From: a virus
Taxonomy: Duplodnaviria; Heunggongvirae; Uroviricota; Caudoviricetes
Length of the DNA: 16,707 nt
Reading direction: 5' to 3' (one strand)
IMG/VR virus record: IMGVR_UViG_2547132418_000023
This document shows, one piece after another, positions 766 through 16,166 of this stretch. A model generated the notes under the pieces. That model did not search any database, had not been told where the DNA came from, and saw nothing but the letters and a program-made list of their open reading frames with translations. Position numbers and translations under genes: made by a program. How positions within the stretch are numbered: the stretch's first letter is position 1; the number at the start of each line of letters is the position of its first letter.

Positions 766-781
766 AGCCCGGCGTTATTTT
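754..781 (+). terminator. Rho-independent terminator for the nucleotidyltransferase gene, sitting between convergent genes
   Basis: Perfect 8-bp stem CGCCGGGC (754-761) / GCCCGGCG (767-774), 5-nt loop GTGAA, followed by TTATTTT. The stop codon lies in the loop. No U-tract in the minus orientation. Confidence 0.55.
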
Positions 782-1235
782 ACGGCTGATATTGCCAGCT
801 ACTGACTAAAGCGTACAAGTGGTTTGGGGAATAGCGCCAACTCTCCTTTAATTGCAGAAATTCGGCACAAAATTCGCTGCAAAACAGGCGTTCACGCTGT
901 TCTTTATTACCGGTAATAATTCCAAGCGCGCCGCGCCAATCATATTTTTTGCCATCATGTTTATGGAAAAACGCTTCCACGTCCTGAAGGCTGGCCTGGA
1001 GCGGCAGCATATCCCACTTATCCGCTGGCAATGGCATTATCTTTCCGCGTACACCGCGATCGCGCAGTGATGCAGAGTAACAAAGGTAACTCTTTTCACC
1101 ATGCTTAACGGCTAATTCACAGTGGGAATAACTACCGCGCGTGATTTTACGGGTAAGCCAGTCAGCCAGTCGGGCAATACCACGGTGCTCTGTTCGGCCC
1201 TTATAACAAGCGAGCCAGACAGTGGTTTTACTCAT
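780..1235 (-). CDS. Putative permuted papain-like amidase (YiiX/YaeF-like, NlpC/P60 superfamily), 151 aa, translationally coupled to the upstream fibre chaperone gene
   Basis: ATG at 1233-1235 overlaps the upstream stop (ATGA). Motifs YSHCE, GKKYDW and FCSEFC resemble the His-before-Cys arrangement I recall for YiiX-family proteins. Recalled from memory, not searched. Confidence 0.4.
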   Translation of the reverse strand: MSKTTVWLACYKGRTEHRGIARLADWLTRKITRGSYSHCELAVKHGEKSYLCYSASLRDRGVRGKIMPLPADKWDMLPLQASLQDVEAFFHKHDGKKYDWRGALGIITGNKEQRERLFCSEFCAEFLQLKESWRYSPNHLYALVSSWQYQP

Positions 1236-1846
1236 GCTTGCCAGCCTGTTGAATAATCGTAGTCGAGCACCGCCTGAATATCGTCCAGAGCTTCCACCGC
1301 CGCGATATGGTGCTGGGCATTGGCGAACAGGCGCATATCGTGATCCATTGTTACCGATTCAAACTGGGCGGCGATCTCGTTGGTTAACTCGATCAGACCG
1401 TTATTTTTAGTTTTCCACATTAACCCTGGAGGGATTTTTTTCTCCGCTCCCATTTTTGTGAGTGAGAGCTGTTGGATACGGCTGTTTGTATCACTGTGGA
1501 AGTGATGGTTGTTGATGATGATGTAATCGGTTGTGACGTAATCCCGTTTGGATTTTATTCTTCTTATTATATCCGCTTTTATTTCTGAAATAAATTTAAG
1601 CATTGAATCTGTATCAACTATCCATTCTCCTTTTTTTAGTTTGTGAAATCTATCTGGTGGTGGCGTAGAGATAAAGGATAAATCTTCACAGTTAATCCAA
1701 ATTGGGATATTAGCTTTCGCATATGTCTGCCATTGCTGATCAGTTATTTCAACTAAATGTTCTACTTTAGGATAGTTGTAGTGTTCTGTATCGATCCAGT
1801 CCAGAACGATAAATGTTTCAGGATCAAAACAAGCATATTTTGTCAT
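1232..1846 (-). CDS. Putative tail fibre assembly/chaperone protein, 204 aa
   Basis: ATG at 1844-1846, immediately downstream of the fibre gene. Its 5' half shares the low GC (about 25-40%) of the fibre tip. It lacks the C-terminal EWP motif I recall for lambda/P2 Tfa, so the call is mainly positional. Confidence 0.5.
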   Translation of the reverse strand: MTKYACFDPETFIVLDWIDTEHYNYPKVEHLVEITDQQWQTYAKANIPIWINCEDLSFISTPPPDRFHKLKKGEWIVDTDSMLKFISEIKADIIRRIKSKRDYVTTDYIIINNHHFHSDTNSRIQQLSLTKMGAEKKIPPGLMWKTKNNGLIELTNEIAAQFESVTMDHDMRLFANAQHHIAAVEALDDIQAVLDYDYSTGWQA

Positions 1847-1852
1847 TTTTAA

Positions 1853-3847
1853 TTACCATGATATTTTTACGAAGCCAGAGGCACCTTTTGTTCCGCTAGT
1901 ATTGCCTAAATTTGTTAACTCATTATTTTTATATTGAAAAGGAGGTAAATAAGATCCCCCAGCTCCTCCAGAACCATAACCTGTTGCTGCTGTTGGCTTT
2001 GCCATTACTGCTTTTTTTCCACCATTACTTAGGTTTTCTGTAATAACAGTACCTGAAGCCCCTCCCTTTCCATATATAGAATTTTCACCATTCTTTCCAG
2101 GATAAAATTCTGCAGATGACGGTATTGCATTTGGTGGAGTACCTTTAGGATCGTCACTGAATTTTATATAAGGCTGCGTAGTGTTAGAGTGATAAATGTT
2201 ATATCCTCCATGGCCACCTTTTGCAGTTAGATTAGAAAACGAAGAGTCTCCACCATCAAAGCTTTTTTGTGTTGTCTCTGTTTTATCATACGAATACTTT
2301 ATTTGTGAAACAGGTGGATTGTTCCAAAAAGGACCTCCATTACCTCCAGCTCCGATCTTTACTGAAAAATGCTGGCCTGGTGCCACGTTTAAGTAATCAA
2401 CAATCAATTCTCCTGCATTACCTCCGCAGGCTTCATAATGTGATGATTGTGCTCCTCCGGCCCCCCCACCTCCGCCGCCCATAATTTCCACAAATAATAT
2501 TGTTACGCCCTCAGGAACTATAAATGTTCCATTTGTAGTATAAAAACTAGTGTGGGTATGATTAGCTGGAGCTGCAGTTTTTGCCTTATCCATTGCCGCC
2601 TTCACCGCGCTCGGTGTCGCCGCCTCCGTCGTACTGTTGCTATCCGTCGCGTTATTAAGCTTCACAATCCCTTTTTGCGACAGGGTGCCGTCTGGAACAC
2701 CCGTAATCTGTCCCCATGGGTGAGTATGGTTTCCCGCAGCCTTACTATTCGCCAGGTCATATGCCGCCTTCACCGCGCTCGGTGTCGCCGCCTCCGTCGT
2801 ACTGTTGCTATCCGTCGCGTTATTAAGCTTCACAATCCCTTTTTGCGACAGGGTGCCGTCTGGAACACCCGTAATCTGTCCCCATGGGTGAGTATGGTTT
2901 CCCGCAGCCTTACTATTCGCCAGGTCATATGCCGCCTTCACCGCGCTCGGTGTCGCCGCCTCCGTCGTACTGTTGCTATTGGTCGCGTTATTAAGTTTCA
3001 CAATCCCTTTTTGTGTCAGGGTACCGTCAGGAATACTCGTAATCTGCCCCCAGGGGTGCGTATGACTACCCGCAGCCTTACTATTCGCCAGGTCATACGC
3101 CGCCTTCACTGCGCTCGGTGTCGCCGCCTCCGTCGTACTGTTGCTGTCTGTCGCGTTATTAAGCTTCACAATCCCTTTTTGTGTCAGCGTACCATCTGGT
3201 ATATCAGTAATCTGACTCCAGGTATGACGATGATTTCGAGCCTCAATCATTGCCGCTTTCACCGCTTTTGGCGTAGCCGCTTTGGTTTCGTCATCACTGT
3301 CAGTGGCGTTACTCAACTGTGTAAAGCCTTTTTGCGTTAACGTAGCATCAGGATGATTAGTCGAACGCTCATGTTCATCCAGTTGTGAATCAACATAATC
3401 CCGTGTTGCCAGTACAATACTGGGGTCAACGGTGAGTGTTACCGCAGTCGTGTTGGAAACTTCCATAATCAGGCGAATGCAAACTTGCTTACCGCTGCCG
3501 CCGGGTAATAGTGGTTTATACGACTCCGGGAATTTACCGATAGCAATGAGTTCACCATCGGTATCAAAAACGCCGACTTCACGTACATACCAGCCGCCGA
3601 TATTTTCGGGCAGCACGAGTTCCGCAATTAACCAGTTAGGGTTATTGGGTGCAACTGTTAATGTATTTAAATCACCGCGCCATACTTCATGGCGTAATTT
3701 AGTTTGGCTGACGGTGGGTTCATAATATTGTCCTCCGCTGTCACCAACAGCCATTTTTTGTAGATGAAGCTGTTTTTTATCCGCCAGAGCATTGGCAATT
3801 TTTGCCATTCCCCTGTCGGTGAGTAGAGTATAAAACTCATTGTCCAT
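1853..3847 (-). CDS. Tail fibre protein, 664 aa: P2 gpH-like N-terminal domain, 56-aa repeat shaft, glycine-rich C-terminal tip
   Basis: ATG at 3845-3847 with GGAG 6 nt upstream. The N-terminus (EVWRGDLN, IAELVLPENIGGW, ESYKPLLPGGSG, ATRDYVDSQLDEHE, HPDATLTQKGFTQLSNATDS, ATPKAVKAA) matches my recollection of P2 gpH. Repeats of HTHPWGQIT..PDGTL.QKGIVKLNNATDSNSTTEAATPSAVKAAYDLANSKAAG follow. C-terminus carries GGGGGGAGG, GAGGNGG, GGHGG, GSGGAGGS motifs. Confidence 0.9.
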   Translation of the reverse strand: MDNEFYTLLTDRGMAKIANALADKKQLHLQKMAVGDSGGQYYEPTVSQTKLRHEVWRGDLNTLTVAPNNPNWLIAELVLPENIGGWYVREVGVFDTDGELIAIGKFPESYKPLLPGGSGKQVCIRLIMEVSNTTAVTLTVDPSIVLATRDYVDSQLDEHERSTNHPDATLTQKGFTQLSNATDSDDETKAATPKAVKAAMIEARNHRHTWSQITDIPDGTLTQKGIVKLNNATDSNSTTEAATPSAVKAAYDLANSKAAGSHTHPWGQITSIPDGTLTQKGIVKLNNATNSNSTTEAATPSAVKAAYDLANSKAAGNHTHPWGQITGVPDGTLSQKGIVKLNNATDSNSTTEAATPSAVKAAYDLANSKAAGNHTHPWGQITGVPDGTLSQKGIVKLNNATDSNSTTEAATPSAVKAAMDKAKTAAPANHTHTSFYTTNGTFIVPEGVTILFVEIMGGGGGGAGGAQSSHYEACGGNAGELIVDYLNVAPGQHFSVKIGAGGNGGPFWNNPPVSQIKYSYDKTETTQKSFDGGDSSFSNLTAKGGHGGYNIYHSNTTQPYIKFSDDPKGTPPNAIPSSAEFYPGKNGENSIYGKGGASGTVITENLSNGGKKAVMAKPTAATGYGSGGAGGSYLPPFQYKNNELTNLGNTSGTKGASGFVKISW
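2594..3265. repeat. Tandem 168-bp direct repeats (4 copies, units starting 2594, 2762, 2930, 3098; degenerate 5th about 3251-3340) inside the fibre gene
   Basis: TGCCGCCTTCACCGCGCTCGGTGTCGCCGCCTCCGTCGTACTGTTGC recurs at an exact 168-bp period. Copies 1 and 2 are nearly identical, later copies progressively diverged. In-frame, encoding 56-aa repeats. Confidence 0.85.
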
Positions 3848-3849
3848 AA

Positions 3850-4482
3850 TTACTCCGGGTAAATAGATGTAATTTCAAGGCTCCATTGCCCTGTTCCGTA
3901 ATAAATCGATGTGTTGTGCTGTACTTCCCGTATCTGGAAAGGTAAAACCGTCGTCAGTTCACCACCATAAAGTGCACAGCCAATAACAGGAATAGCACTT
4001 TGGTTAATGATCCAGACGATTAATGCTTCCAGTTTTGAACGTGTGTTTTTATATTCATGAATGAGTTCTACCAAATCATTGAAAAGGTTTTCATCCAGGC
4101 CTTTATCCACCAGCGCTATATCCACCTTAAAAAAATAAGCCCTTCCCCCATATTCAAACCATTCTGAAATAGTTCCTGGTAATGAGAGTATTTCCAGCAC
4201 CCGCCGCACCGCCCAAATTGTTCCTTTATATTTATGCAGTTCAATGGCTTGTTTAATTAACTCGCGTTTCTCCCGCTCATCGGTGGTAAATAACCAACCT
4301 TCCAGCCCCTGAACGTGAAATTGTTCTGCAAGGGCTGGTAATGCCGAAGCATCAACCTGGTCGATCAGATAAACCATCAACGCCGTCAGATCGAGTTGGG
4401 CAAAACGCTCGGCGGCGATATTTGCCAGAATCGAAAAACGCTCATCGCTGGCAAGCGGCGGCGGTGGCAGCAATTTATCCAT
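3850..4482 (-). CDS. Baseplate/tail protein, P2 gpI-like, about 210 aa
   Basis: The ORF-track start at 4497 is TTG; in-frame ATG at 4480-4482 (MDKLLPPPP...) overlaps the gpJ stop by 8 nt. Positioned between gpJ and the fibre as in P2 J-I-H. Confidence 0.7.
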   Translation of the reverse strand: MDKLLPPPPLASDERFSILANIAAERFAQLDLTALMVYLIDQVDASALPALAEQFHVQGLEGWLFTTDEREKRELIKQAIELHKYKGTIWAVRRVLEILSLPGTISEWFEYGGRAYFFKVDIALVDKGLDENLFNDLVELIHEYKNTRSKLEALIVWIINQSAIPVIGCALYGGELTTVLPFQIREVQHNTSIYYGTGQWSLEITSIYPE

Positions 4483-5590
4483 CGCTGACTCCGGCAATCG
4501 TGACGTCTATTGCGGTGCATTCCGCCCACTCATGCGCCTGCAAAATACGTTTTGTAGGCATATTCAGCGCAACGTCATAGACGCCATCGACCTGTAACAC
4601 TTTGATTATCTGGTTTGGCACAATGTCCTGCCCCAGATGTTTCTGCCGCTGTTGCGTCCAGAGGCTAATCGCTTTACGCGCTGCAGCCAGCGTTGTCTCC
4701 TGATCGGCGGTGGTAAACAGCGTTAGCTGCGCACGGATCTCATATGGCACTCGAAGAGCGCATTTCGCACTCACTTTGTCGGTCAGCGGACGTTTTTTCT
4801 CCTTGCTAACCTCCTGTTCAATTTGCGCGAGCAGTTCTATTCCCGGCAGTCCGTTCAGAGTTAGCGGGTAGATCTCCACGCAGCCTTCTGGCAATCCCTC
4901 GTCCGGCCCCAGTACTGCAACGTCAATAATCGACTGGCTAACAGAAAGCGTATGAAAGCGGTAGGCACCATAGCTGCCCGCATTACTAAAGCTTTCTGGT
5001 GCCAGTTGGATACGCTGGCGCAATGCGTCATCGCTCTCTTCACCGCAGCCGCCCGTTGACGCAGTCAGGTTGGTTACGTTGATGTCATAATGACCAATCC
5101 TGTCGACCAGTGCGCTAATTTGTGCAGGCTGCCAGCCGTTACCCTGTTCACCTGCTGCGAGGCTGGTGGCAGGAACGGCGATATGCAAACTCCTGGCCGG
5201 AAGCAGAACATCTTCATCGGTGGCGAACATCACGCTATCAGAGGCACTGGCCCGCGTTCCCTGGGGAATCAGGATATTGCTGGTATACGCGCTGACGACC
5301 GAAAACTGCAACGTCGTTTTTGCCGGCTGCGCAGGCAAACGGTGAACGCCCACCAACTCCCCTAAATAATCCAGCATTGGCGCGCGGGAATACGCGACCA
5401 GGTTCTGTTTCGCCGCTTCCTGAATGGCGATGCGTACAAGGTTTTCACGATAGGCAAACAGGTCGATGAGCAACCGCTCAGCCTGTGCCGGATAGAGTTT
5501 TTTACCGCTGGCATCTTCGTATTGCGCAATCATCTCACTGGTAATTTGCGCAGGATCGCGGTCAATAAAATTGGGTTCGGCTATCGCCAT
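4475..5590 (-). CDS. Baseplate J-like protein (P2 gpJ / T4 gp6 family), 371 aa
   Basis: ATG at 5588-5590 with GGAGGGG Shine-Dalgarno. Size and position after the gpW-like gene; start overlaps the gpW stop by 10 nt. Confidence 0.8.
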   Translation of the reverse strand: MAIAEPNFIDRDPAQITSEMIAQYEDASGKKLYPAQAERLLIDLFAYRENLVRIAIQEAAKQNLVAYSRAPMLDYLGELVGVHRLPAQPAKTTLQFSVVSAYTSNILIPQGTRASASDSVMFATDEDVLLPARSLHIAVPATSLAAGEQGNGWQPAQISALVDRIGHYDINVTNLTASTGGCGEESDDALRQRIQLAPESFSNAGSYGAYRFHTLSVSQSIIDVAVLGPDEGLPEGCVEIYPLTLNGLPGIELLAQIEQEVSKEKKRPLTDKVSAKCALRVPYEIRAQLTLFTTADQETTLAAARKAISLWTQQRQKHLGQDIVPNQIIKVLQVDGVYDVALNMPTKRILQAHEWAECTAIDVTIAGVSDG

Positions 5591-5940
5591 AACCCCTCCG
5601 TTGAGTTGATAACGCCGTCAGCGGCGCGCCATTGCACACGTAACGTCAGATGTTCGCCGTCGATTACTGGTGTCACCTTCAGCAACCGACAGCGCGGCTC
5701 CCACTGGCGGATGGCTTCCACCGACTCCCGTACCACATGCGGAATTGCCCGCTCGATGGGGTAATCGATGTAGTGCCACAAGTTGCTGCCAAACAGCGGT
5801 CTGTGGGGATCACTGCCGCGCGGTGTGCGCAGAATGATGTGTATTGCCTGGTGAATATCATCCAGTCCGCAGACGTATTCTTCAGGCCGCTGCAAGGCCG
5901 GTTGCCAGTGCAGCGTTGAGGGTCGTGTTTTTGTGTTCAT
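5581..5940 (-). CDS. Baseplate wedge protein, gpW / T4 gp25 family, 119 aa
   Basis: ATG at 5938-5940. Motifs DDIHQAIHIILRTPRGS and IRQWEPRCRLLKVT align with P2 gpW (ILRTPVGS, LKWEPRV) as I recall it. Confidence 0.85.
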   Translation of the reverse strand: MNTKTRPSTLHWQPALQRPEEYVCGLDDIHQAIHIILRTPRGSDPHRPLFGSNLWHYIDYPIERAIPHVVRESVEAIRQWEPRCRLLKVTPVIDGEHLTLRVQWRAADGVINSTEGLWR

Positions 5941-5999
5941 GAGGGTATTTTCGCCCTGAACGGGCTGTGGCGATATTAAAGCGATTTAGAAAACTGATT

Positions 6000-6033
6000 G
6001 ATTAAAAAGAGAAAACCCGCCATCAGGCGGGTT
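6000..6033 (-). terminator. Intrinsic terminator inside the tail operon, between the spike and gpW genes
   Basis: Perfect 8-bp stem AACCCGCC (6014-6021) / GGCGGGTT (6026-6033), loop ATCA. In mRNA sense it is followed by UUUUCUCUUUUUAAU, just downstream of the spike stop. Confidence 0.55.
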
Positions 6034-6038
6034 AAACG

Positions 6039-6740
6039 TCAGTGTGTATGGTGGTTGGAGTTGCCACCGCTGTCCTGCAATGCGCCGCTGGCCTGAACGT
6101 TGCCGATCACGTTGACATTGCCAGTTATCGTGGCGGCGTTACCGATGCCTCCACTTCCTGCCATCCCGCCAAGCCAGGTGAGTTTTTTCATTACCGTGAC
6201 ATTGCCAGTAAAGGTGCTCATGGGCGCATCTACCGTCACTGCTGCCGCTTTAACATCGACCTTAGTGGCGTCGATGCTGACATCGGTCGCTTTAATATCG
6301 ACGGTATCGGAAGTCACGGTGACCTGTTGGGCTTTAATCTCAACGTTGGGTGATGTCAGGCGGGTACTGTCGATAACCTCAATCACGATTTTCTCGATAC
6401 CGCCGTTAATCGTCAGCTGGTGGGTGCTGCGGTCATATTCAAACGCTGCGCCATCAGAAAACTGGACGTAACGTTTATCGCGCGAGGCCACAGGCGCGGT
6501 GTCAACCGTAGAATAAACTGCGCCCAGCACCACGCCATCTTCACCGTTATTGTCCAGCAGAACTTCCACTTGCTCGCCCATATCCGGTAGCCAGTAGTCT
6601 TTATTGTCCTGGGAATTGCGTTGAAGTACCGCAAGCCAGTTGCTCTTCAGATTGTCACACTCCGGAAGCGTGACTCGCACCCGAACGCTGGTTTCGTCAA
6701 TATCGCTGATAATCCCCGTTTGACGGGTTACTCCTTTCAT
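6039..6740 (-). CDS. Baseplate central spike, P2 gpV-like, 233 aa
   Basis: ATG at 6738-6740 with AAGGAGG Shine-Dalgarno. N-terminal OB-like region, then beta-helix-like repeats (VTVTSDTVDIKATDVSIDATKVDVKAAAVTVDA). C-terminus ends NSNHHTH, an HxH apex motif of the kind that binds metal in P2-type spikes. Confidence 0.8.
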   Translation of the reverse strand: MKGVTRQTGIISDIDETSVRVRVTLPECDNLKSNWLAVLQRNSQDNKDYWLPDMGEQVEVLLDNNGEDGVVLGAVYSTVDTAPVASRDKRYVQFSDGAAFEYDRSTHQLTINGGIEKIVIEVIDSTRLTSPNVEIKAQQVTVTSDTVDIKATDVSIDATKVDVKAAAVTVDAPMSTFTGNVTVMKKLTWLGGMAGSGGIGNAATITGNVNVIGNVQASGALQDSGGNSNHHTH

Positions 6741-6749
6741 ATTTCCTCC

Positions 6750-7790
6750 TTACTGGCTGGTCGCTGGCCCGCGTGACACGTCGATTTCAGTGGTATAGCC
6801 GCTGCGCACAAAACTGTGAGTCGATTTATCAATCAGCCACTGACCGGAAAGCACGCCAAAATCGGTCAGTTCAATTTTATTGCCCGCCGTCAGTTCCGGG
6901 CAGCCCATCATCCTGAGCGTTCCGGTTTGTTGATATTCGTTGTGGCTGTCGAGCGCGGCGTTGGCCTTTGCCTGTGCCGCGCCAACGTCCGGCGCCCGAC
7001 TGTTCAGTTTTAGCGTGTCGGCACTGGTGCCGACTCCACGGGCAGACGGTTTTTGCTGGCTGTCGTGGGTGTAGATAACCAGTTCTTTTTTCTTACTATT
7101 TTGATGCTGTACGGTGGCATTTTTGTAGATACGGTTAATGGTATCTTTGAAGGTGAAATGCGAAACGTCTTTGCGGTCGATCGTTTTTACCGGCGCCAGG
7201 CAGCGCAGCGTGGGTAAATGCGAAAAAATCAGTTCTTTGGTGGTCACCTTTACCGCATAGCCATATTCGCTGGCCAGGCGCTTGAGAAATCCGACATCGG
7301 TTTCACCATACTGCGTTACCCGGTCGATGGTGAGCGGCTCGATTTTGCCCACCAGTTTCAGACCGTGCGTTTGGGCGATACGGCTGGCGATAGCCGAAAG
7401 CGTCGTTTCTTCAAAGCCCTGGCTGTTACGGGTACGCAGCGCCTGATTGACGGAAGTGGCGATGCCATCAATATTTACCGTAGAAGGTGGCGCTGAAATA
7501 TCAATTTTATCAATAATATACTGACCACAATCGAGCAGCTTTTCCCCCTGATAACCCATATGCAGCGCCAGCGTATCGCCTTTGCCGGGATACCACTCTT
7601 TTATCCAGCGTCCATCGGTGTCATCCAGTGTAATCGCGATGGTATCTGACTCGTTTTTGATGCTGTCGTGGTAACTGATGCTGGTGACATAGGGTGTGAT
7701 GTCATAAGTGATATCTTTATGCCCATACCAGAGGGTAAAAATGGGCGTGAGTGTGGCAAAGACGCCACCAGTTACGCTTATCTCAGCCAT
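6750..7790 (-). CDS. Baseplate hub, P2 gpD-like (late control gene D family), 346 aa
   Basis: ATG at 7788-7790. Sits upstream of the spike and after gpX as in the T-U-X-D block. The C-terminal region (TGTLRMMGCPELTAGNKIELTDFGVLSGQWLIDKSTHSF) resembles gpD. Confidence 0.8.
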   Translation of the reverse strand: MAEISVTGGVFATLTPIFTLWYGHKDITYDITPYVTSISYHDSIKNESDTIAITLDDTDGRWIKEWYPGKGDTLALHMGYQGEKLLDCGQYIIDKIDISAPPSTVNIDGIATSVNQALRTRNSQGFEETTLSAIASRIAQTHGLKLVGKIEPLTIDRVTQYGETDVGFLKRLASEYGYAVKVTTKELIFSHLPTLRCLAPVKTIDRKDVSHFTFKDTINRIYKNATVQHQNSKKKELVIYTHDSQQKPSARGVGTSADTLKLNSRAPDVGAAQAKANAALDSHNEYQQTGTLRMMGCPELTAGNKIELTDFGVLSGQWLIDKSTHSFVRSGYTTEIDVSRGPATSQ

Positions 7791-7987
7791 GGTGGGATCT
7801 CCGATAAGGTTTTATTGACGGAAATGACCGGAATAATGAGCTGAATACCGGAAGGCAGTACCGGGTAAATGGCGACATGTGGATTGGCGACGATTATGCG
7901 TTCATAAGCCAGCGCATCACCGTAGTAATGCCATGCCAGATTATCCCAGCGTTCGCCGTCGGTGGTGATATGTTCAAGGTATCGCAT
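7778..7987 (-). CDS. Tail protein X (P2 gpX-like, LysM-like), about 69 aa
   Basis: The ORF-track start at 7990 is GTG; ATG at 7985-7987 overlaps the upstream stop (TGATG). Motif WDNLAWHYYGD...ANPHV...LPSGIQLIIP resembles P2 gpX. Confidence 0.75.
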   Translation of the reverse strand: MRYLEHITTDGERWDNLAWHYYGDALAYERIIVANPHVAIYPVLPSGIQLIIPVISVNKTLSEIPPWLR

Positions 7988-8940
7988 CACCAGATCCTCG
8001 TAATGGTCGCGGCAGCAAGCTGGCTCACTGTGGGAGTGGTTTGTTGTACCGTTGTTCGTGCCTGATCAACCAACGTTGCGGCTTTATCAAACGTCGCTTC
8101 GGCGATGTCGCTGGTAATGTCGTCGAAAAGCGCCTGAGCATGGTCAACCAGTGTACTGGCGTCATTGGCGCAGTCCCGGATACCTGGCATGTTACCCAGT
8201 AAAGTTTTAATCTGCGCCGACAACGCTTTTGGGAGTCCTGCCAGCGTTTGCAGATCCATTGGCTGTTTAAACAGGGTTTCGATGGCGTCGATTGTCTTTT
8301 TCAATGACGTAATTATCTTTTCACACTTTTCTTTTAACACTTTGGCCTCTTTAATCATTGCTTTCACTTTTGCCACCGTTTTTTTAATATCTTCAATGGC
8401 TTGTGTCAGTTCATCCAGCATCTCTTTGGCCTTACGCATACCTTCTTCGATGGCGTTTAATATCTGATCAAACCAGGACTCCACCATGTCGGGAAAATCG
8501 CTCGCCTTTTCCTCAATGTTAGGCTCCTGGGTGGTAATCGCCGGAGGTAAAAGTGGATTTTTAGGATCGCCGGTGTACTCCTGGAGCGACATCGTTCCGT
8601 TTTGGGCAATCACATTGCCCCAGGGATCGGTGTGCTGGTGGGTGGCGGTTAGCTCCGTAATTACAAACCAGCCGCGATAATCGCCATTGCCAAATACCAG
8701 TGCCATCGCCTTGTGAGCAAGCATGGCTTCACGCAGTCGATTAAGCTCTGTTGTGGGCTGGCAAAACTGGCTGTGCAGGGAAAATTCCAGCGCCAGCATA
8801 TCCAGCTTATCGCCAATAAACTGCACACCGGGTTTGCCTTCTATACGGGCATGTGTGGCGTAATCCACGCCCATTGTGCTTTTAAAGCCGTCCCAGAATG
8901 CGACAACCTTAAATTCAATCTCTCCTAAAACGGCATACAT
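7987..8940 (-). CDS. gpU-like tail protein with a roughly 165-aa helical C-terminal extension, 317 aa
   Basis: ATG at 8938-8940 overlaps the tape-measure stop (TGATG). N-terminal GDYRGWFVITELTATHQHTDPWGNV resembles P2 gpU (GWFVITSISRQH). The C-terminal half is K/E/A-rich and heptad-like (EEGMRKAKEMLDELTQAIEDIKKTVAKVKAMIKEAKVLKEK). Confidence 0.7.
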   Translation of the reverse strand: MYAVLGEIEFKVVAFWDGFKSTMGVDYATHARIEGKPGVQFIGDKLDMLALEFSLHSQFCQPTTELNRLREAMLAHKAMALVFGNGDYRGWFVITELTATHQHTDPWGNVIAQNGTMSLQEYTGDPKNPLLPPAITTQEPNIEEKASDFPDMVESWFDQILNAIEEGMRKAKEMLDELTQAIEDIKKTVAKVKAMIKEAKVLKEKCEKIITSLKKTIDAIETLFKQPMDLQTLAGLPKALSAQIKTLLGNMPGIRDCANDASTLVDHAQALFDDITSDIAEATFDKAATLVDQARTTVQQTTPTVSQLAAATITRIW

Positions 8941-11315
8941 CAGGCATACCCCCGGCGCTGTTGTTGCGCCATTACGTCGTTAATCATTCTTTCAAGTTCG
9001 CGTTTACTCATCGTCAACACGTTCTGAATCTCTTTAGTGGTGTTTTGTCCGTTACCCTGCACGGTAATCTGTGGCGAAAAATTCACCTGAACTTTTCCAG
9101 AGGAACGGGAAGGTAGCGTCGCCGGTTTGGTTACGGATTTACCAGGTAAAGAGGCCAATGCGGGTTTGGCGGCTGTATTTTTTGCCGCAGGTGCCGATGG
9201 CGGCGTTGTCGTTTTACTGGATGGCGCGAGTTGTTTCCCCACCGGAGGCGTTAAAATCGCACCGGCAACGCCTGGAACAACGCTCGCGGGGGAGACGGAT
9301 GCGGTATTAGTCGTGCTTGTAATAGCTGTAGCCGATCCTTCTGTACTAATACCCATCGTGGTTTTTAGCCAGTCTGGGATGACGTTTTTGACCTGATCAA
9401 TAATGCCTTTCAGAGCGGGGAAGGCATTCATTATGCCGTCGGCCAGGCTAGCCAGAAGATTGCTGCCGAACTCGCTAAAACTCGCAGGCATTTCAACACC
9501 AAACCAATTCATCACACTGGAAAAGGCGCTATAGAACAACTCCAGCGGCGACCAGTCGAGAATTAACCGACAAATTTCTGCAATGCCGCCGTCAAAGGCC
9601 GTGGTGATACGTTGCCAGATGGTAGAAAAGAACCTGGAGATAGGCTCCCAGTTGCGATAAATCAGATAAGCAGCGCCCGCAATCGCAGTGATGACCAGAC
9701 CAATGGGATTCATCAATAAAACCCTACCCAACCAGAAGACGGTCTGACCTGCCTGTTTCAGTGCGCCAATCAGGCCACGACCAAGCAGTTGCGTTAGCCA
9801 TTTTGCACCGCCACCCAATGACTTAACCGCTGATAGCATCTTACTTGCCCCGCCTGTGAGTGCCAGACTTGCCCTGACTTTCAGGAAGATATCGACCAGA
9901 CGAATAAACGGCGAGGCGATGAAGTTCGCGCCCAGTTTTAAAACATTCAGCGCGCCGTTAAACAGCCAAATCGCCCCGACGATTTTCGCAATGTTTTGCA
10001 CCAGTGCCGGGTGCTCACGTAGCCAGGCGCTGAACTGGCGAACAACCGGCGTAAGGCTTTGTGCCAGCTCGCCAATCAGCGGCATTAATTGCAAGCCAAT
10101 GCTGAGCCATAAATCATTTAACGCCAGCTGTAACGCTTTAGTCTGTTCAATGGGCGAGGCCATTTGCGCAGAAAAGTCGGCATCAATCAGATTCTTGCTG
10201 CTGGCTTGCATGGCAGAGGCTTTTAACTGGCGATATTCCTCCATATTCGCCAGCATAGGTGCCAGGAATTCCACAGTTTGCGCATCGCCGAACATTTCGC
10301 CCAGATTAAATTGCGTCACCATCGATTGCAGCGCATTGCTGCGAGCAGATAAATCTTCAATCTGCATAGTGCGTTTGAAGGTGCCGAGGATCGCCGGATT
10401 CATCTTCTCAAGCTGCATTTGCACGATATGAGTCATGGCTTCGCTAACACCCATACCGTTTTGCTGATGCTCAAGCAGAGAGCCTTGCAGATCAACGCCC
10501 TGGCTGGCGAACCAGTTATCGGTTTTTTTCGAAAAGGTGGTTTGCAGAAAGTGGTCGAAATTCTCCGCCGCCGCACTGGCGCTGGCCCCGTTTTTCATGG
10601 CGATCTGCATGATGGCGGTCAGTTCAGCCATACCTTCCAGACCCTGAGCGCCGGTTTTACCTGCAAATTTCTCTATCCACTGCGTTTGTTCGGCAACGGC
10701 AGGCCCACCGCTTTTGCTAATGCCATACATCATGTTTTGCGTGGCGTGGAAATTTTCCGGGGCAATATTCAATCGATCATGAGTCGCGAGCGCGGCATTC
10801 GCCCACGTTTCAGCACTTTCGCGCGTGGCGGTGGCAGCTTTGGCGATCTCCGGCATATAACGGTTGAGATCCTGCATCGACGACAAATTGCCTTCGATCA
10901 GCGTTTGGGCTGCGTTCTGTAAGGTGGTCTGCTGCTGGTTAAAATCCATGCTCCAGTCGCGCAGATTAAGGCTGAGCGTCTCGCGGGTTGTAGCATTCAT
11001 CCCACCTTTGGTCGCCATATTGACCATGTTGTCCTGGAACTCATATGGCAACTTCCAGTCGGGGGCTTCAACATTGAATACCTTGCTAAATTGCCCGGCA
11101 AATGTTTGGGTTTTCTCCATTAGATCAGCGCGGTTCCGGCTATTTTCCTCCAGGCGGAGAGCAGAATCGGCAAGTTGCTGCGTTAGTTTGATTACTGTCG
11201 CTTGCTGAGAAGAGAGAGCTAACAAAGTTCTGGCGTTGAGTGAGCCGTAACGGGCTATTGCCTGCGTCAACGTCTCATTACGCGCCTGAAGCTGGGTAAT
11301 AATATCGTTGGCCAA
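8940..11315 (-). CDS. Tail tape measure protein, 791 aa
   Basis: Long, mostly alpha-helical, hydrophobic central segments, Pro/Ala/Ser/Thr-rich stretch near the C-terminus, located after the chaperone gene. Start is TTG at 11313-11315 (in-frame stop at 11328-11330, no nearby ATG), preceded by AAAGAGAAA. Confidence 0.8.
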   Translation of the reverse strand: MANDIITQLQARNETLTQAIARYGSLNARTLLALSSQQATVIKLTQQLADSALRLEENSRNRADLMEKTQTFAGQFSKVFNVEAPDWKLPYEFQDNMVNMATKGGMNATTRETLSLNLRDWSMDFNQQQTTLQNAAQTLIEGNLSSMQDLNRYMPEIAKAATATRESAETWANAALATHDRLNIAPENFHATQNMMYGISKSGGPAVAEQTQWIEKFAGKTGAQGLEGMAELTAIMQIAMKNGASASAAAENFDHFLQTTFSKKTDNWFASQGVDLQGSLLEHQQNGMGVSEAMTHIVQMQLEKMNPAILGTFKRTMQIEDLSARSNALQSMVTQFNLGEMFGDAQTVEFLAPMLANMEEYRQLKASAMQASSKNLIDADFSAQMASPIEQTKALQLALNDLWLSIGLQLMPLIGELAQSLTPVVRQFSAWLREHPALVQNIAKIVGAIWLFNGALNVLKLGANFIASPFIRLVDIFLKVRASLALTGGASKMLSAVKSLGGGAKWLTQLLGRGLIGALKQAGQTVFWLGRVLLMNPIGLVITAIAGAAYLIYRNWEPISRFFSTIWQRITTAFDGGIAEICRLILDWSPLELFYSAFSSVMNWFGVEMPASFSEFGSNLLASLADGIMNAFPALKGIIDQVKNVIPDWLKTTMGISTEGSATAITSTTNTASVSPASVVPGVAGAILTPPVGKQLAPSSKTTTPPSAPAAKNTAAKPALASLPGKSVTKPATLPSRSSGKVQVNFSPQITVQGNGQNTTKEIQNVLTMSKRELERMINDVMAQQQRRGYA

Positions 11316-11416
11316 AATTGTTTCTCTTTAATTATTGATAATGGCCCACTGGTTATTTTTCTAAAAAAGGGGCTGGGAAGAAATAAACCTGGCGGGCTTT
11401 GAAGAACTCGCAGACA

Positions 11417-11822
11417 TCAGGTCTGGGAGCCATATTCGATCTTTATTTGGTCGCTGGCTTCATCCAGCCAGTTGCTAAAGTCATCTATGGTGAGCGCGTC
11501 TATCTCACTGGGTGGAAAGCGAAACCATCTCGCCAGTAGCGCCATTGCCTGCCATAGCTGGGGAGGATTCTGTAACCACGGTAAGCATGGATTGAAATCG
11601 TTTCTGCAATGCCTGGTAATCCAGCAAATCCATTTCAGCTAAATCTTCTGGCACCAGTCCGGTCATCGCCGCCATTAGCGGTTCATCCCACTCTTCGGGT
11701 TTTTCGCTGATCCGGCGCGCGTTGCGCATATCTTTTACTTTCAGGCGACGTAATTGCAGCGAGTCGATAGTATTTCCTGCTGCCGACGTAAATGGGAACT
11801 GTAAGATATAATGCTCTTTCAT
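11417..11822 (-). CDS. Putative frameshift-extended chaperone (E+E'-like) produced by a +1/-2 shift near the 3' end of the chaperone gene
   Basis: The +1 frame is open from 11638 to a TGA at 11417-11419 and encodes protein-like sequence past the chaperone stop (...WFRFPPSEIDALTIDDFSNWLDEASDQIKIEYGSQT). The -1 frame stops after 8 codons. Slip site not identified. Confidence 0.4.
11505..11822 (-). CDS. Tail assembly chaperone (P2 gpE-like), 105 aa
   Basis: ATG at 11820-11822 with AAGGA Shine-Dalgarno. Position between tube and tape measure. DLAEMDLLDYQALQKRF resembles the gpE family. Confidence 0.75.
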   Translation of the reverse strand: MKEHYILQFPFTSAAGNTIDSLQLRRLKVKDMRNARRISEKPEEWDEPLMAAMTGLVPEDLAEMDLLDYQALQKRFQSMLTVVTESSPAMAGNGATGEMVSLSTQ

Positions 11823-11848
11823 TTTGTATCCTTATTTATGTTGCGAAG

Positions 11849-11868
11849 TTCGGGGCCGTAGCCCCGAA
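11849..11868 (-). other. Intergenic RNA stem-loop between tube and chaperone genes, no U-tract
   Basis: Perfect 8-bp inverted repeat TTCGGGGC (11849-11856) / GCCCCGAA (11861-11868), loop CGTA, in the 47-nt tube-chaperone gap. Confidence 0.5.
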
Positions 11869-11872
11869 TAAT

Positions 11873-12397
11873 TTAGCCACCGATGTTATTGCGATAGGTA
11901 CTTAATTGATCCACGCCGTTAACCCGAAAAATATTCGCCATATAATCAAGTTCAAGCAGCGTTTCACCATCGACCACTTGTTTAATATAAGTACAACCAA
12001 AGGCGCTGCTGAATTCCGGGTTTTCATTCTGTTTAAATGTGCCCAAGGGATTCTTTTTAAACATCACGGTTAAATGTGTCACTAACGCTAATTGATTCGC
12101 TTTCCCCTGGGAGTTATAGCAATCAATACTGGAGCGGCACTGTAATGCTACTGCCTGCCACGGGTTTGCCGTTTTACGCATTACGTCCTGATAAAAGGAG
12201 TTCCATTTAATTTCCCCCTCCAGTTTATCGAAACCAGCCGGGAGTTCGATTTTACCGACCATACCCAGTGCTTTATGCTCTTGCATAATTAAACTGACAT
12301 CCGGCAATTTAATTTCGGTTGCACGACCTAAAAGATTATTACCATCGAGATAAATATTGGCGTTGGTAATACGGTTAATTTGAATTTTTCCAGCCAT
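11873..12397 (-). CDS. Tail tube protein (P2 FII-like), 174 aa
   Basis: ATG at 12395-12397 overlaps the sheath stop (TAATG). C-terminus CTYIKQVVDGETLLELDYMANIFRVNGVDQLSTYRNNIGG closely matches P2 FII as I recall it. Confidence 0.85.
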   Translation of the reverse strand: MAGKIQINRITNANIYLDGNNLLGRATEIKLPDVSLIMQEHKALGMVGKIELPAGFDKLEGEIKWNSFYQDVMRKTANPWQAVALQCRSSIDCYNSQGKANQLALVTHLTVMFKKNPLGTFKQNENPEFSSAFGCTYIKQVVDGETLLELDYMANIFRVNGVDQLSTYRNNIGG

Positions 12398-13821
12398 TAG
12401 CTATTGCTCTCCAGAGAGACTAAATATTCAGAAGTAATTTCAGTTTCAAACGTCAGACGTTCCAGCGGCGGCGGCGGGGTGAATTTATAGCTAAGCAATA
12501 AATGCCCGGCGCTGAGTTCAGCCGGTGAATTTCGCGCCGGATCGTACCAGCACTCAAAGCCAAGCAGTGCGCCGTCGGCAATCAGTTTTCGGCCCCAGGT
12601 ATTTACCGATTCGGTCAGCGCGTCAATAAGAGCCTGATTAATCGGCATATCAATATACTGCTGACTGAAATAACGGATTGACTCATTAATTACATCGCCT
12701 GTCCGGCGAACGTTTTCAAAGTTACGCATATGGGTCACGGTAGGCCATGCCGCTGTGCGGTTGCCCCACAAGCGCAGACCAGAACCGTAACTATTGAAAA
12801 TAGTGGTAATGCCGTTTTCGTTGAGCTGATTCACTTCGCTTTGTGGATCATCAATCATTGCAGAAAGCGAACGTTCAATACCGGTAATACCCTGAATTTC
12901 CTGGTTTGAGTTGCTCCACCAGAAACCTTTTTCGAGGTCTACTTTGGCACGTAGCCCGGCAGCGCGCGAAGAGAGTGGTTCGAGAACTTCCTGGTTAGTG
13001 ATGCCATCGTAAACTTTGACGTGTGGGTAACATAAACGCACACGATCAGAGCTGGTATTGAAGTTGATAGCCCCTTGCGAACCGCGTCCAGCCAATACCT
13101 GCTGGAATGTCGTCCCAATCGGAGCATCAATGTAGGTAAGCGCACCGAGTTTTTCCGCTTGTGCAATCAGCTCAGTAGTTACTGATTTTTGCGTACAAAA
13201 CACGGGAGCAAGCAGGATTTTGGCGTAGAAACCGTACAGGTTATAGGTGTCCTGAAGGAGTTTCATCCCCGTGCGGTCGCCTGCGGTATTTACGGCACCG
13301 ATAATATCGGCTGCGGTGACCTTTGTAGGGTCGCACCAGGAATAATAGGCGCAAACTTTCGCACCAGGAGGAATGTCGGCTCCTTTACGGGTAATTATGC
13401 CTGTTTGTTCATCTACGCTAAATGCTGCGGTGTTAAAGGTTGATGAATTTGATGAAGAGGGCTTTAGTACCACGTTACGCACATTGCGGTGAGCGAGCTT
13501 CGCCTGGTTGTTAGCGTCAAAAGTGATACTCTCATTGCTGATGTTGGAGCCATGTTTTGCCGGATCCAGCACGTTAATCACCACCACCGTACCGGCACCG
13601 TGGTCATAAATCGCCTTCAGTGCCTGTGGGATCGTAAAGTTAGCCTGAGTCGAGCCAAACTGCGCAGCATCGCTTTCAGAAAGGCATAATGTTGGTTTAT
13701 TTACCGGACCGCAGGGGGCCGTACCGATTAAAGCGATGACGGCGGATTTTACCGCTTTAACCGGACGCGGGCCGGTTTCAATTTCAATGGTTTCTACACC
13801 GTGCAGGTAATTAGCTGCCAT
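12397..13821 (-). CDS. Tail sheath protein (P2 FI-like), about 474 aa
   Basis: The ORF-track start at 13827 is TTG; ATG at 13819-13821 is preceded by GAGGA. C-terminal region (LRLWGNRTAAWP..., ECWYDP..., LSYKFTPPPPLERLTFE) matches sheath proteins. Confidence 0.9.
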   Translation of the reverse strand: MAANYLHGVETIEIETGPRPVKAVKSAVIALIGTAPCGPVNKPTLCLSESDAAQFGSTQANFTIPQALKAIYDHGAGTVVVINVLDPAKHGSNISNESITFDANNQAKLAHRNVRNVVLKPSSSNSSTFNTAAFSVDEQTGIITRKGADIPPGAKVCAYYSWCDPTKVTAADIIGAVNTAGDRTGMKLLQDTYNLYGFYAKILLAPVFCTQKSVTTELIAQAEKLGALTYIDAPIGTTFQQVLAGRGSQGAINFNTSSDRVRLCYPHVKVYDGITNQEVLEPLSSRAAGLRAKVDLEKGFWWSNSNQEIQGITGIERSLSAMIDDPQSEVNQLNENGITTIFNSYGSGLRLWGNRTAAWPTVTHMRNFENVRRTGDVINESIRYFSQQYIDMPINQALIDALTESVNTWGRKLIADGALLGFECWYDPARNSPAELSAGHLLLSYKFTPPPPLERLTFETEITSEYLVSLESNS

Positions 13822-14008
13822 GTACAATTTCCTCTACGTTATTTTGTTCTTCCTGAGTGATGACAGGAGTCAGATGATTGCGGGCAATCATGGTCATGAC
13901 CCACTCGTTGTCTTCTGGCAGATCAATTTCACTGTTCGGCCACAATAAGATTTCTTGTCCATCGGCAAGGGTGACGCCGCTTGCCGGGCCGTTGTAGATG
14001 TATTTCAT
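13811..14008 (-). CDS. Small conserved tail-module protein (Mu gp38-like), 65 aa
   Basis: ATG at 14006-14008 overlaps the upstream stop (ATGA). Position directly before the sheath, as in Mu-like phages. Family assignment from memory. Confidence 0.4.
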   Translation of the reverse strand: MKYIYNGPASGVTLADGQEILLWPNSEIDLPEDNEWVMTMIARNHLTPVITQEEQNNVEEIVHGS

Positions 14009-14460
14009 TCAGTTTCCTCGTAGTTAACTTCCGTAAGCAGGGGAAGATCCGTGCTTTCCTGTTCAGCGATAAACAGCGAGCTGGTCGCCATTTCCAGGAT
14101 GTAGCGGCAGAAACCGCCGCTCTCACCCGTATTAATTTCTTTTTCAAGCCAAAGCAGACGATCGCAATCAGGAAGCTGAAGGCCGCCCAATGCGCTGCGT
14201 ATGCAATCAAGTGCGTTTAACGCGTCACAATTTTTGTCAACAATAACGGTGGCGGTTAAGCGGAGTATTTGCTGTTGCACGATGGCATCACTGCTTTCGG
14301 GTGTGGTAAAGACAGAACCGCTATAATTAATAATCACTGCAACTTGTTGTGTCTGTGGAATATATTTCTGGGCATCCGTAGATGAAATAAATATATCCAT
14401 TTCAGGATGCCGATCACGTAATTTGACCATGACATAATTCATTGCAGATAAAATTTTCAT
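14005..14460 (-). CDS. Putative tail completion/terminator protein (Mu gp37-like), 151 aa
   Basis: ATG at 14458-14460. First gene of the tail operon after the terminator. VAVIINYSGSVF-type motif. Family assignment from memory. Confidence 0.45.
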   Translation of the reverse strand: MKILSAMNYVMVKLRDRHPEMDIFISSTDAQKYIPQTQQVAVIINYSGSVFTTPESSDAIVQQQILRLTATVIVDKNCDALNALDCIRSALGGLQLPDCDRLLWLEKEINTGESGGFCRYILEMATSSLFIAEQESTDLPLLTEVNYEETE

Positions 14461-14564
14461 ATGAGGTGTACCTTAATTACCGCTCACTTCGTTATCGTTG
14501 AGATGTATTATGAAGCAGTGAAGGTGAAGAATCTTTTAATGTGATTTAGAGAAAAAATTGAATG

Positions 14565-14601
14565 GCTATAAAAAATCCCCACACTTACGTAAAGGTGGGG
14601 A
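14565..14601 (-). terminator. Intrinsic terminator separating the lysis cassette from the tail operon
   Basis: 7-bp stem TCCCCAC (14576-14582) / GTGGGGA (14595-14601) with a partly self-complementary loop. In mRNA sense followed by UUUUUUAUAGCC, just after the 14607 stop. Confidence 0.5.
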
Positions 14602-14606
14602 TGTAT

Positions 14607-14921
14607 TTAATAACTGCCACGTTGTAACAGCTCGATTTTGCTATATAAGGCATCCAGCTTTGCTTCTAATACTGCTTGCCCACGAAGATAATCTTCTCTG
14701 CGGACATAATGCAGCGGAAGCTCGGCACGAAATTCAAGAAACTCTCTTTCCAGTTTCGACCAACTTGTTTCTGATTCCCTGCGGGCATTTTCCAGAGACT
14801 CAAAACGCTCATTAAGTCGTTTTTCAATTTGCGCTAACAGCAGTTTTCCGGCAGCAAACATTAATCCAACGAAGGAAAGCATAAGGGAGATCACTTCCCA
14901 AAAATCGATACTGAGTTTCAT
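14607..14921 (-). CDS. Membrane-anchored coiled-coil protein, possible lysis accessory (i-spanin-like), 104 aa
   Basis: ATG at 14919-14921 with GAGGGG Shine-Dalgarno. N-terminal hydrophobic helix (VISLMLSFVGLMFAAGKLLLA) then charged heptad-like sequence. Last gene of the lysis cassette. Confidence 0.5.
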   Translation of the reverse strand: MKLSIDFWEVISLMLSFVGLMFAAGKLLLAQIEKRLNERFESLENARRESETSWSKLEREFLEFRAELPLHYVRREDYLRGQAVLEAKLDALYSKIELLQRGSY

Positions 14922-14933
14922 CGGCCCCTCTGA

Positions 14934-15539
14934 TTAGTGAAGACAGCTTGCCTGTCCCCAGAGTAAATAGCGGGCAGCGTGTTGATAGAGAATCATCTTT
15001 GGATAGCGACGATTTTCTCGCCAGTTCGCGGCGCTGCGCCCGGCGTTGACTTGCTCGACATGACCAAACCAGCGAGTGGCATCTAACCCTTTGGATGCAG
15101 CCAGTTTTTTATCCCGGTTAACCCACCCCTGACCGCCGTTATAGGCGCTTAGGGTAAACGCCATACGCTGACAGTCATTTTGCGCAGAGATGTTTTTCCA
15201 CAAATGCTGGTCATATTGCACCAGCGCGCGAATCGCCCAGGTTGGGTTATACGGTTTGTTTTCACGCAATTGTGGATACAACTGGCTTATCCATGTCGCA
15301 GTAGCAGGCATAAATTGCGCCATACCTTGTGCGCCAACGGGGGAACGTACCATTGGCTGCCAGGCGGACTCCTGGTGTAATTGCCCGGCAAAGTCGGCCA
15401 CTGGGGCATTCAGCCCCCAGACTTCTCGAGCTGTACGAATTAGTTCGTTTCGCCATGCCAGAGAGGCTCGCGGCGGTTCAGAGGCGTTAAGCGGGAAAAG
15501 AACGAAAATAATCATAGACGCGATATATTTCAGCCACAT
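14934..15539 (-). CDS. Endolysin candidate: lytic transglycosylase (SLT-like) with N-terminal signal/SAR sequence, about 201 aa
   Basis: The ORF-track start at 15617 is TTG; ATG at 15537-15539 (MWLKYIASMIIFVLFPLNAS...) lies 2 nt after the holin-like stop with AGGG upstream. HQESAWQP has the catalytic Glu-Ser context; GAQGMAQFMP and AYNGG are SLT-like. Confidence 0.7.
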   Translation of the reverse strand: MWLKYIASMIIFVLFPLNASEPPRASLAWRNELIRTAREVWGLNAPVADFAGQLHQESAWQPMVRSPVGAQGMAQFMPATATWISQLYPQLRENKPYNPTWAIRALVQYDQHLWKNISAQNDCQRMAFTLSAYNGGQGWVNRDKKLAASKGLDATRWFGHVEQVNAGRSAANWRENRRYPKMILYQHAARYLLWGQASCLH

Positions 15540-15541
15540 CA

Positions 15542-15829: not shown

Positions 15830-16125
15830 ACGATATCTCCTGATAAGTGAGCGTTTAGTGTCGTCAGAACCCGCCAGTGAAGAATGAAAAAAGCTTTAAT
15901 AAATAAGTTTAAAAAATAGATTCTCTATAAATGAACATGCCCGCTAATAAATCGACTCAGCAATTAAAGAGCAAACGGTGACCTGGCGAATAAGCGCGTC
16001 ATTATGCAGGGAAAAGATGATGGTGGATCGTAGGAATAGTCGATAGTTATTTGATTTTTAAAGTTTGTTTAAGAAAGTCAGCGACTGTGAGGGAAACGAT
16101 CTTTTTACACTACAGGTAAAAATAA

Positions 16126-16145: not shown

Positions 16146-16166
16146 TCGTGTAAAATGATACTCCTG

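Follow-up and report, generated by a model that had tools for sequence, protein, structure and literature searches.

The 317-residue gpU-type protein encoded in this stretch of DNA is probably the tube initiator of a BcepMu-type contractile tail, in which its C-terminal helical extension would act as a 'glue' between wedges and hub that is released at contraction; by analogy with solved baseplates, this reading is given a probability of roughly 0.6. A long gpU is ordinary for the BcepMu-type tail lineage and is conceptually already explained by those baseplates. The extension diverges fast yet stays under purifying selection, with a dN/dS of about 0.2. The whole stretch analysed, 16,707 nucleotides and referred to here as the window, is a tail-only island, and this island is a more interesting lead than the gpU extension itself.

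The island and the position of the long gpU gene

The island is located in E. coli S10, between lysC and the RlaP nucleotidyltransferase/slipin pair upstream of yjbD; E. coli IAI39 is another strain that bears it. The gene order runs from a Mor-family activator through a holin, lytic transglycosylase, membrane protein and Gp37-family protein to the tail genes, up to and including those for fibre assembly. Genes for a capsid, portal, terminase, integrase or transposase are absent from it. Among 5426 complete E. coli genomes, 189 have the island conserved as one unit, and the long gpU gene was found at full length and with an intact frame in 195 genomes of this set. A Salmonella counterpart with 77.8% nucleotide identity, which carries STM4208-STM4210, is the 'Def4' prophage remnant. 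The tail-only island may be a tailocin, and no literature report that the E. coli or the Salmonella island makes particles was found. If it does make them, the long gpU would be a handle for engineering how stable an E. coli or Salmonella tailocin is, or how it fires. The 'tailocin' published for E. coli ST131 (PMC9205054) was considered as well and is a different element, being a complete P2-like prophage.

Based on Pfam matches, the order on the minus strand is sheath, tube, chaperone, tape measure protein (TMP), long gpU, gpX, gpD, gpV spike, gpW, gpJ, gpI and tail fibre (Table 1). The long gpU gene thus lies between the TMP gene and the gpD hub gene, as is the case for PF06995 tube initiators. 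Its ATG overlaps the TMP stop codon (TGATG) and its own stop codon overlaps the start of gpX, which is located directly downstream and is probably translationally coupled to it. The region singled out by the sequence-only reading (7987-8493) corresponds to the 3' half of the gene and encodes aa 150-317 plus the stop codon.

Table 1. Positions in the window of the long gpU gene, its parts and the neighbouring tail genes.
Feature	Position	Strand	Basis or remark
Long gpU-type tube initiator gene (baseplate centrepiece)	7987..8940	-	317 aa + stop
Tube-initiator domain, aa 6-123	8572..8925	-	Pfam PF06995 Phage_P2_GpU, E 1.9e-33
Motif EYTGDPKNPLLPPA, aa 121-134, exit from tube domain	8539..8580	-	highly conserved, 23 homologues
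Proline-rich flexible linker, aa 124-155	8476..8571	-	pLDDT and prolines
Heptad-repeat region, aa 157-226, predicted helices 1 and 2 (antiparallel hairpin)	8263..8472	-	periodicity and AlphaFold2
Predicted helices 3 and 4, aa 238-316, completing the predicted four-helix bundle	7993..8229	-	AlphaFold2; periodicity
C-terminal motif TPTVSQLAAATITRIW, family pattern AP.LS.LAA.I.TR	7990..8034	-	conserved in homologues
gpX (LysM 'glue' protein)	7778..7990	-	70 aa; PF05489, E 7e-23
gpD baseplate hub	6750..7790	-	PF05954
Wedge genes gpW, gpJ, gpI	3850..5940	-	PF04965, PF04865, PF09684
TMP	8940..11315	-	PF10145; adjoins long gpU gene upstream
Tail assembly chaperone gene	11505-11822	-	clear Pfam match
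Tube gene	11873-12397	-	clear Pfam match
Sheath gene	12397-13827	-	clear Pfam match

Domain architecture and predicted fold

The N-terminal domain was recognised by PF06995 with a score of 115.1 bits, against a gathering cut-off of 27.5. At its exit, residues E121, Y122, G124, K127, L130, P132, P133 and A134 of the EYTGDPKNPLLPPA region are invariant among 23 homologues. The linker that follows has prolines at positions 126, 129, 132, 133, 140 and 150, and AlphaFold2 assigned a pLDDT below 50 to aa 124-153.

Beyond the linker, ten unbroken heptads run across aa 157-226, where the GC content drops to 0.41. Hydrophobicity repeats every 3.5 residues over aa 150-232, with a power of 189 compared with 16 ± 12 for shuffled sequences, and none of 500 shuffles was as strong. 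The remainder of the extension (aa 233-317) shows a period of about 3.65, typical of an amphipathic helix, and in the same analysis the N-terminal domain showed no heptad-type periodicity. At the C-terminus S306, A310 and R315 are invariant in the 23 homologues, and this motif is probably an anchoring contact.

All AlphaFold2 models of the long gpU were of the monomer. In the full-length model four long antiparallel helices were predicted (aa 156-188, 192-225, 238-273 and 280-316, pLDDT 80-95), and the extension modelled alone gave an up-down four-helix bundle with a pLDDT of 79.7 and a pTM of 0.73. In homologues a 'DNP' helix breaker coincides with the first turn of the prediction. The models thus predict a tethered, intramolecular, antiparallel four-helix bundle as opposed to one long coiled-coil rod or fibre. 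Within the particle, they might be paired with helices of other proteins and not among themselves.

These results agree with the sequence-only reading on two points, that the protein is about twice the length of P2 gpU (317 against 159 aa) and that a heptad-like helical region of about 165 residues follows the gpU-like domain. Its description of this region as K/E/A-rich fits the first half best, since aa 131-317 as a whole contain 12.8% A, 10.7% T, 9.6% K, 9.1% L, 9.1% I, 8.0% D and 7.5% E. The long coiled coil that it proposed is borne out as regards helicity and heptads, but AlphaFold2 folds the region into a four-helix bundle and not a rod.

The extension is acidic in the window protein (net charge −7). 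No hydrophobic or transmembrane-like segment was detected in it, the highest 19-residue Kyte-Doolittle window scoring 0.92.

Family, distribution and divergence of the extension

The profile phrog_788 ('tail protein') matched aa 1-316 of the window protein over profile positions 1-296 of 297, with an E value of 1.4e-130. By tblastn, matches with a query coverage of 91-99% were obtained in BcepMu (gp45), phiE255 (gp19), Klebsiella phage KP12 and Escherichia phage PhiKM, and a match was likewise found in a Ralstonia phage. BcepMu gp45 is annotated as 'P2 gpU protein' and the PhiKM counterpart as 'tail protein U'. In the protein database search hundreds of enterobacterial prophage homologues shared the layout, many of them 288-327 aa in length with 99% coverage. 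The extension was found in all full-length relatives, which form at least 20 clusters at 50% identity. When a profile restricted to the extension was run against 1.84 billion representative proteins, the true relatives recovered were exclusively gpU-family proteins, in about 20 clusters at 50% identity. The other matches of this profile were giant repetitive helical proteins, many of them matched in part; these were set aside as compositional noise, in agreement with Pfam on a sample.

Two relatives, of 451 and 462 aa, bear a tandem duplication of the extension. The BLAST alignment with the 289-aa homologue of Pseudomonas phage Komp_PAO1_1 was limited to the N-terminal domain, yet this protein ends in AP.LS.LAA.I.TR, as does BcepMu gp45. 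The window protein carries the marks of the PHROG 788 / gp45 family, namely the end-to-end profile match, the linker motif and the C-terminal motif. Within the family its extension belongs to a K/E-rich subtype of 183 residues with a 20-residue insert, QPMDLQTLAGLPKALSAQIK, whereas most relatives are A/S/Q-rich or strongly acidic.

Several database entries were examined as possible variants and rejected. Entries of 182-194 aa were not accepted as genuine short forms, as their C-termini read like out-of-frame translation, pointing to frameshifted fragments. The PHROG 18424 match and stand-alone matches of 113-178 aa look like split or truncated genes. Rare gpU-gpX fusions of 364 aa are also present in the databases and may be sequencing errors. 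The name 'methyl-accepting chemotaxis protein' given to some homologues, such as Salmonella STM4210, was judged a misannotation, the window protein having neither an MCPsignal Pfam match nor a hydrophobic segment. MCP entries in the PDB were matched by the family profile, but weakly (E 1e-5) and in a coiled-coil-like manner, and the name is attributed to generic coiled-coil/MCP-type matches without homology. Hundreds of enterobacterial proteins named 'phage tail protein' or chemotaxis protein could accordingly be read as helical-latch tube initiators.

Judged by these sequence comparisons, the helical extension is a standard trait of every BcepMu-type contractile tail and not a private fusion. 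The term fusion, used in the sequence-only reading, is apt insofar as two domains are present, a tube initiator and a helical domain, but phrog_788 covers both (aa 1-316) and the combination is not an unusual one. Nor did the modified tube-baseplate junction that it suggested hold up: the extension is standard for the family, and it is the short gpU of P2 that is the exception among gpU-family tails. The possibility also raised, that the extension is simply part of a standard longer family member with a known fold, proved correct for the family; as to the fold, no solved structure matches by sequence.

Conservation is very uneven along the protein. In the set of 23 full-length homologues, high conservation of the tube domain and of the motif EYTGDPKNPLxPPA contrasts with a hypervariable extension that contains indels and of which only the last 15 or so residues are conserved. 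Distant homologues are 61-66% identical in the N-terminal domain and 12-21% in the extension, the net charge of which spans −38 to +11. Between E. coli alleles the dN/dS was 0.19-0.23 for the extension and 0.02-0.03 for the tube domain. Relative to Bcepmuvirus PhiKM, identities were 74% for the sheath, 77% for the tube, 67% for gpX, 60% for gpD, 68% for gpW, 57% for gpJ and 64% for the N-terminal domain of gpU; the gpU extension gave no BLAST match and the alignment of the TMP was limited to its last 49 aa. The extension and the adjoining TMP are thus the fastest-diverging tail parts in this comparison.

Wide variation in sequence, composition, charge and length, together with the indels and the tandem duplication in the relatives of 451-462 aa, is what would be expected if the extension were low-complexity sequence that acts as a spacer, is mostly dispensable and lacks a particular function. 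This reading is considered quite improbable. It conflicts with a dN/dS of about 0.2 and with the intact frame in the 195 E. coli genomes; moreover, no full-length relative lacks the extension, shorter entries looking frameshifted or truncated, and the C-terminal motif is kept across genera.

The extension is also poorly conserved for a contact-rich domain, and for this reason a second alternative is kept as a minor rival, in which it is an ejected or envelope-acting module: carried along on the tip of the tube, it would unfold and assist in crossing or perturbing the envelope of the target. TMP-like or ClyA-like helical proteins would serve as models, and the shared fast divergence of extension and TMP is in keeping with this. 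Weak PHROG matches to TMP families and to a 'hemolysin' family, as well as weak NheC and ClyA-type matches, point in the same direction, and in P2 the tube initiator is known to be retained on the tube at the membrane once the tail has contracted (bioRxiv 10.64898/2026.09.14.750843). However, the TMP and hemolysin matches, with E values between 1e-3 and 1e-2, look compositional, hhalign of the extension with the TMP of the window was null (probability 1%), and the extension has no hydrophobic segment. An ejected module is therefore held to be unlikely. The same hhalign result leaves an origin of the extension from the adjoining TMP unsupported.

Comparison with solved baseplates and proposed role

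With the full-length model as query, the best Foldseek match in the PDB was the Mu baseplate 9KI1, of which two chains were matched, the better one over 334 aligned columns with an E value of 3e-4. Phage 7-7-1 (9RKU) and Agrobacterium phage Milano (gp25, 8FQC_U1), whose solved tube initiators likewise bear a helical domain, came next, followed by baseplate chains of pyocin (6U5B), PVC and AFP. The top matches (9KI1, 9RKU and 8FQC_U1) had E values of 3e-4 to 3e-3 and probabilities of 0.9-0.99 but TM-scores of only about 0.23, low values such as would be expected of two domains on a flexible tether. The 9KI1 chain is taken to be gp43, since the Mu paper (PMC11915804) describes the architecture of gp43 in like terms. 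The extension model alone matched generic bundles only, its fold being too generic to assign.

At the sequence level, the gpU N-domain family profile, which includes the N-domain of the window protein, matched the pyocin R2 Ripcord PA0626 (6u5b_h) with an E value of 2.6e-11, and P2 gpU matched it with an E value of 3e-13. Both alignments fall on residues 159-287 of the 290-residue PA0626 chain. The window sequence alone gave no PA0626 match in a phmmer search of the PDB. PDB searches with the whole protein, the N-domain and the family profile otherwise returned nothing, or generic coiled-coil, designed-bundle and MCP matches, and an extension-only profile of A/S-rich relatives matched neither PA0626 (E ≤ 10) nor Mu gp43 nor Milano gp25. 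No similarity of the extension, by sequence or profile, to any solved helical domain was found in these searches. Taken together, these comparisons support a shared architecture and role with the Mu, Milano and pyocin initiators, but they do not show homology of the helical domains.

In the preferred reading, six N-terminal gpU domains would form a ring on the gpD hub trimer and seed tube polymerisation, a step that follows from homology with P2 gpU and pyocin PA0626. From each, a proline-rich tether of about 30 residues would lead to the predicted antiparallel four-helix bundle of about 160-165 residues. The six bundles would extend downwards and outwards into the gap between the hub and the gpJ2-gpI wedges and, with gpX, occupy and latch the hub-wedge interface until the wedges move apart, after which the initiator would depart with the tube. 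The helical domains of Mu gp43, Milano gp25 and the pyocin Ripcord serve as models for the proposed locking and release. The partners of the helical domain are presumed, from the Mu and Milano structures, to be the wedge proteins gpW, gpJ and gpI. Such a domain may tolerate rapid sequence change because it would mainly need helicity, packing and the conserved C-terminal anchor motif. Extensive wedge contacts might nevertheless predict a better conservation than 12-21%, and gpJ and gpW, by contrast, are 57-68% identical to their PhiKM counterparts.

A more specific version of the glue reading is offered as a speculation that we regard as doubtful. Here the extension would be the trigger-setting 'ripcord' of a Bcepmuvirus-derived R-type tailocin common to E. 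coli and Salmonella (Def4-type), and would form a third hub-wedge latch, a hypervariable and sometimes duplicated four-helix module C-terminal to the tube domain. Its divergence alongside the TMP would then represent tuning of the firing threshold or of envelope penetration, and not drift.

[quoted passage not shown] The P2 and window proteins share the Pfam domain (PF06995 at aa 6-125 in P2 and at aa 6-123 in the window) with 22% identity over 90 aa. In contrast to the short Peduovirus type, whose single C-terminal helix is paired with the gpD L23 loop, four long helices are predicted after the domain in the window protein. Gene X is located elsewhere in the P2 genome, whereas gpX adjoins the long gpU gene in the window. 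BcepMu gp45, phiE255 gp19 and 'tail protein U' of PhiKM, which are among the closest known systems, align with the window protein over the full length and share with it the gene order (TMP, gp45, gp46 (X) and gp47 (D) in BcepMu) as well as the linker and C-terminal motifs. For no member of the PHROG 788 / BcepMu gp45 family was a solved structure or an experimental test of function found.

Phage Mu gp43, the product of gene N, has a tube-like domain that a flexible loop connects to a domain of eight helices, in which a LysM is embedded; the helical domain binds between the wedges, and the protein is both tube initiator and DNA-circularisation protein (PMC11915804). Like the window protein it is encoded directly after the TMP and has an N-terminal tube domain, a linker and a helical domain. 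The analogy with the larger Mu gene N product drawn in the sequence-only reading thus stands at the level of architecture, given this layout and the Foldseek result with 9KI1. The two differ in that gp43 has 495 aa and a PF07157 (DNA_circ_N) N-domain, with eight helices, while the window protein has PF06995 and four predicted helices. A Mu N-like second function, also suggested there, would mean that the extension is delivered by injection and acts on DNA ends, by binding or protecting them (circularisation). Equivalent gene position, the best Foldseek match and the double role of gp43 speak for this. The family, however, shows no significant similarity to gp43 (BLASTP E 1.1; hhalign probability 9.6%), the Pfam domains differ, the acidic extension (−7) does not conserve its charge across relatives, and the island, without capsid, portal and terminase genes, would have no DNA to deliver. 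A role of this kind is rated as highly improbable.

In the baseplate centrepiece Milano gp25, residues 1-127 form a tube domain, 141-345 a helical bundle and 346-396 a LysM domain, the bundle being wedged between two baseplate wedges (PMC10811340). The window protein, whose bundle is known from prediction, likewise has an N-terminal tube domain, a poorly ordered linker and a helical bundle, with nearly equal boundaries, the tube part ending near aa 123 and the helical part starting near aa 156. No sequence similarity of the window protein to Milano gp25 or to phage 7-7-1 was detected. The helical domain of gp25 is also more elaborate, with eight helices over 205 residues, a disulfide link to a wedge protein and a fused LysM after it. 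In both Mu gp43 and Milano gp25 the LysM is part of the same polypeptide, whereas in the window it is a separate 70-aa protein, gpX.

The arrangement in the window resembles that of pyocin R2 in the homologous gpU domain and in its neighbours, a TMP upstream, a separate LysM glue gene and a hub gene. In the P2 baseplate report, the pyocin order is given as TMP upstream and the glue gene between the ripcord and hub genes (bioRxiv 10.64898/2026.09.14.750843), and the Milano paper describes the helical bundle of the PA0626 Ripcord as gluing the wedges and leaving the baseplate on contraction (PMC10811340). From the alignments, the domain order of PA0626 appears to be reversed, with about 158 extra residues N-terminal to the tube domain; this order disagrees with one sentence in the Milano paper (PMC10811340). 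The helical domain may thus precede the tube domain, as in pyocin R2, or follow it, as in the window protein.

Gene content and conservation of the tail-only island

The positions of the island and of the regions discussed here are listed in the table below. Besides a Mor activator and a lysis cassette, the island encodes a BcepMu-type tail module that is complete, but genes for a head, packaging, an integrase or a transposase are absent from its roughly 16 kb. It is kept as one unit in 189 out of 5426 complete E. coli genomes. The island could be an R-type tailocin instead of a decaying prophage; no report of particles produced from it was found in the literature. The RlaP-family nucleotidyltransferase adjoins a slipin gene in E. 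coli S10, and about 1440 other E. coli genomes contain it but lack the tail genes.

The N-terminus of the tail fibre is a P2-type collar; the protein also contains five ‘Phage_fiber_2’ repeats, and its C-terminal domain is rich in glycine. Next to it are encoded a DUF4376 protein and then a 151-aa ORF, for which no family match was obtained. The fibre gene measures 1827 nt in E. coli S10 versus 1995 nt in the window, and thus the receptor-binding end differs among strains.

Features of the island and its surroundings
Feature	Window position	Position elsewhere	Remark
RlaP-family nucleotidyltransferase	1-784		at window edge, outside island
Tail-only island, ~16 kb	780-16707	L004 (comparison locus) 12234-27993	adjoins lysC
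Tail fibre and next ORFs	1853-3847 and 780-1846		
Region with Salmonella counterpart	3157-15917	L009 (Salmonella locus), AFYI01000007.1 32425-33969	77.8% nucleotide identity
Low-GC stretch over the K/E-rich heptad region	8200-8499		GC down to 0.41
Tape measure protein	8940-11315		

The Salmonella counterpart and divergence around the long gpU

The Salmonella counterpart includes STM4208-STM4210 and corresponds to the ‘Def4’ prophage remnant, said to be ancestral to serovar Typhimurium. The homologue of the long gpU is STM4210. Both in annotation and in papers it is named a ‘methyl-accepting chemotaxis protein’, a wrong label that stems from the helical-bundle composition of the protein.

The tape measure protein was as divergent as the gpU extension. 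Its alignment with that of Bcepmuvirus PhiKM was limited to the last 49 residues (37% identity), compared to 50-77% identity for all other tail proteins. The GC content of the heptad region lies below the value of about 0.52 in the surrounding genes, which could simply reflect amino-acid composition or mark a swapped-in module.

Domain order and possibly fused relatives of the long gpU

In the pyocin R2 Ripcord protein PA0626 (PDB 6u5b_h), alignment with P2 gpU and profile A3, which includes the N-terminal domain of the window's gpU, located the gpU-homologous domain at residues 159-287 in a chain of 290. The additional helical portion would therefore be N-terminal, in disagreement with PMC10811340, in which it is placed at the C-terminus of the tube domain as a fusion.

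Among the database homologues, P0079, P0083 and P0101 (364 aa) carry the long gpU and the LysM protein gpX in one frame (...TRSVMFLEH...). These entries may be real variants or may stem from assembly errors of a single base where the stop and start overlap; they show the same tube-helical-LysM order as Mu gp43 and Milano gp25. In P0126 (462 aa) and P0137 (451 aa) the helical extension is tandemly duplicated, with two stretches in each matching the extension profile. This duplication would result in about eight helices, the number found in Mu gp43 and Milano gp25.
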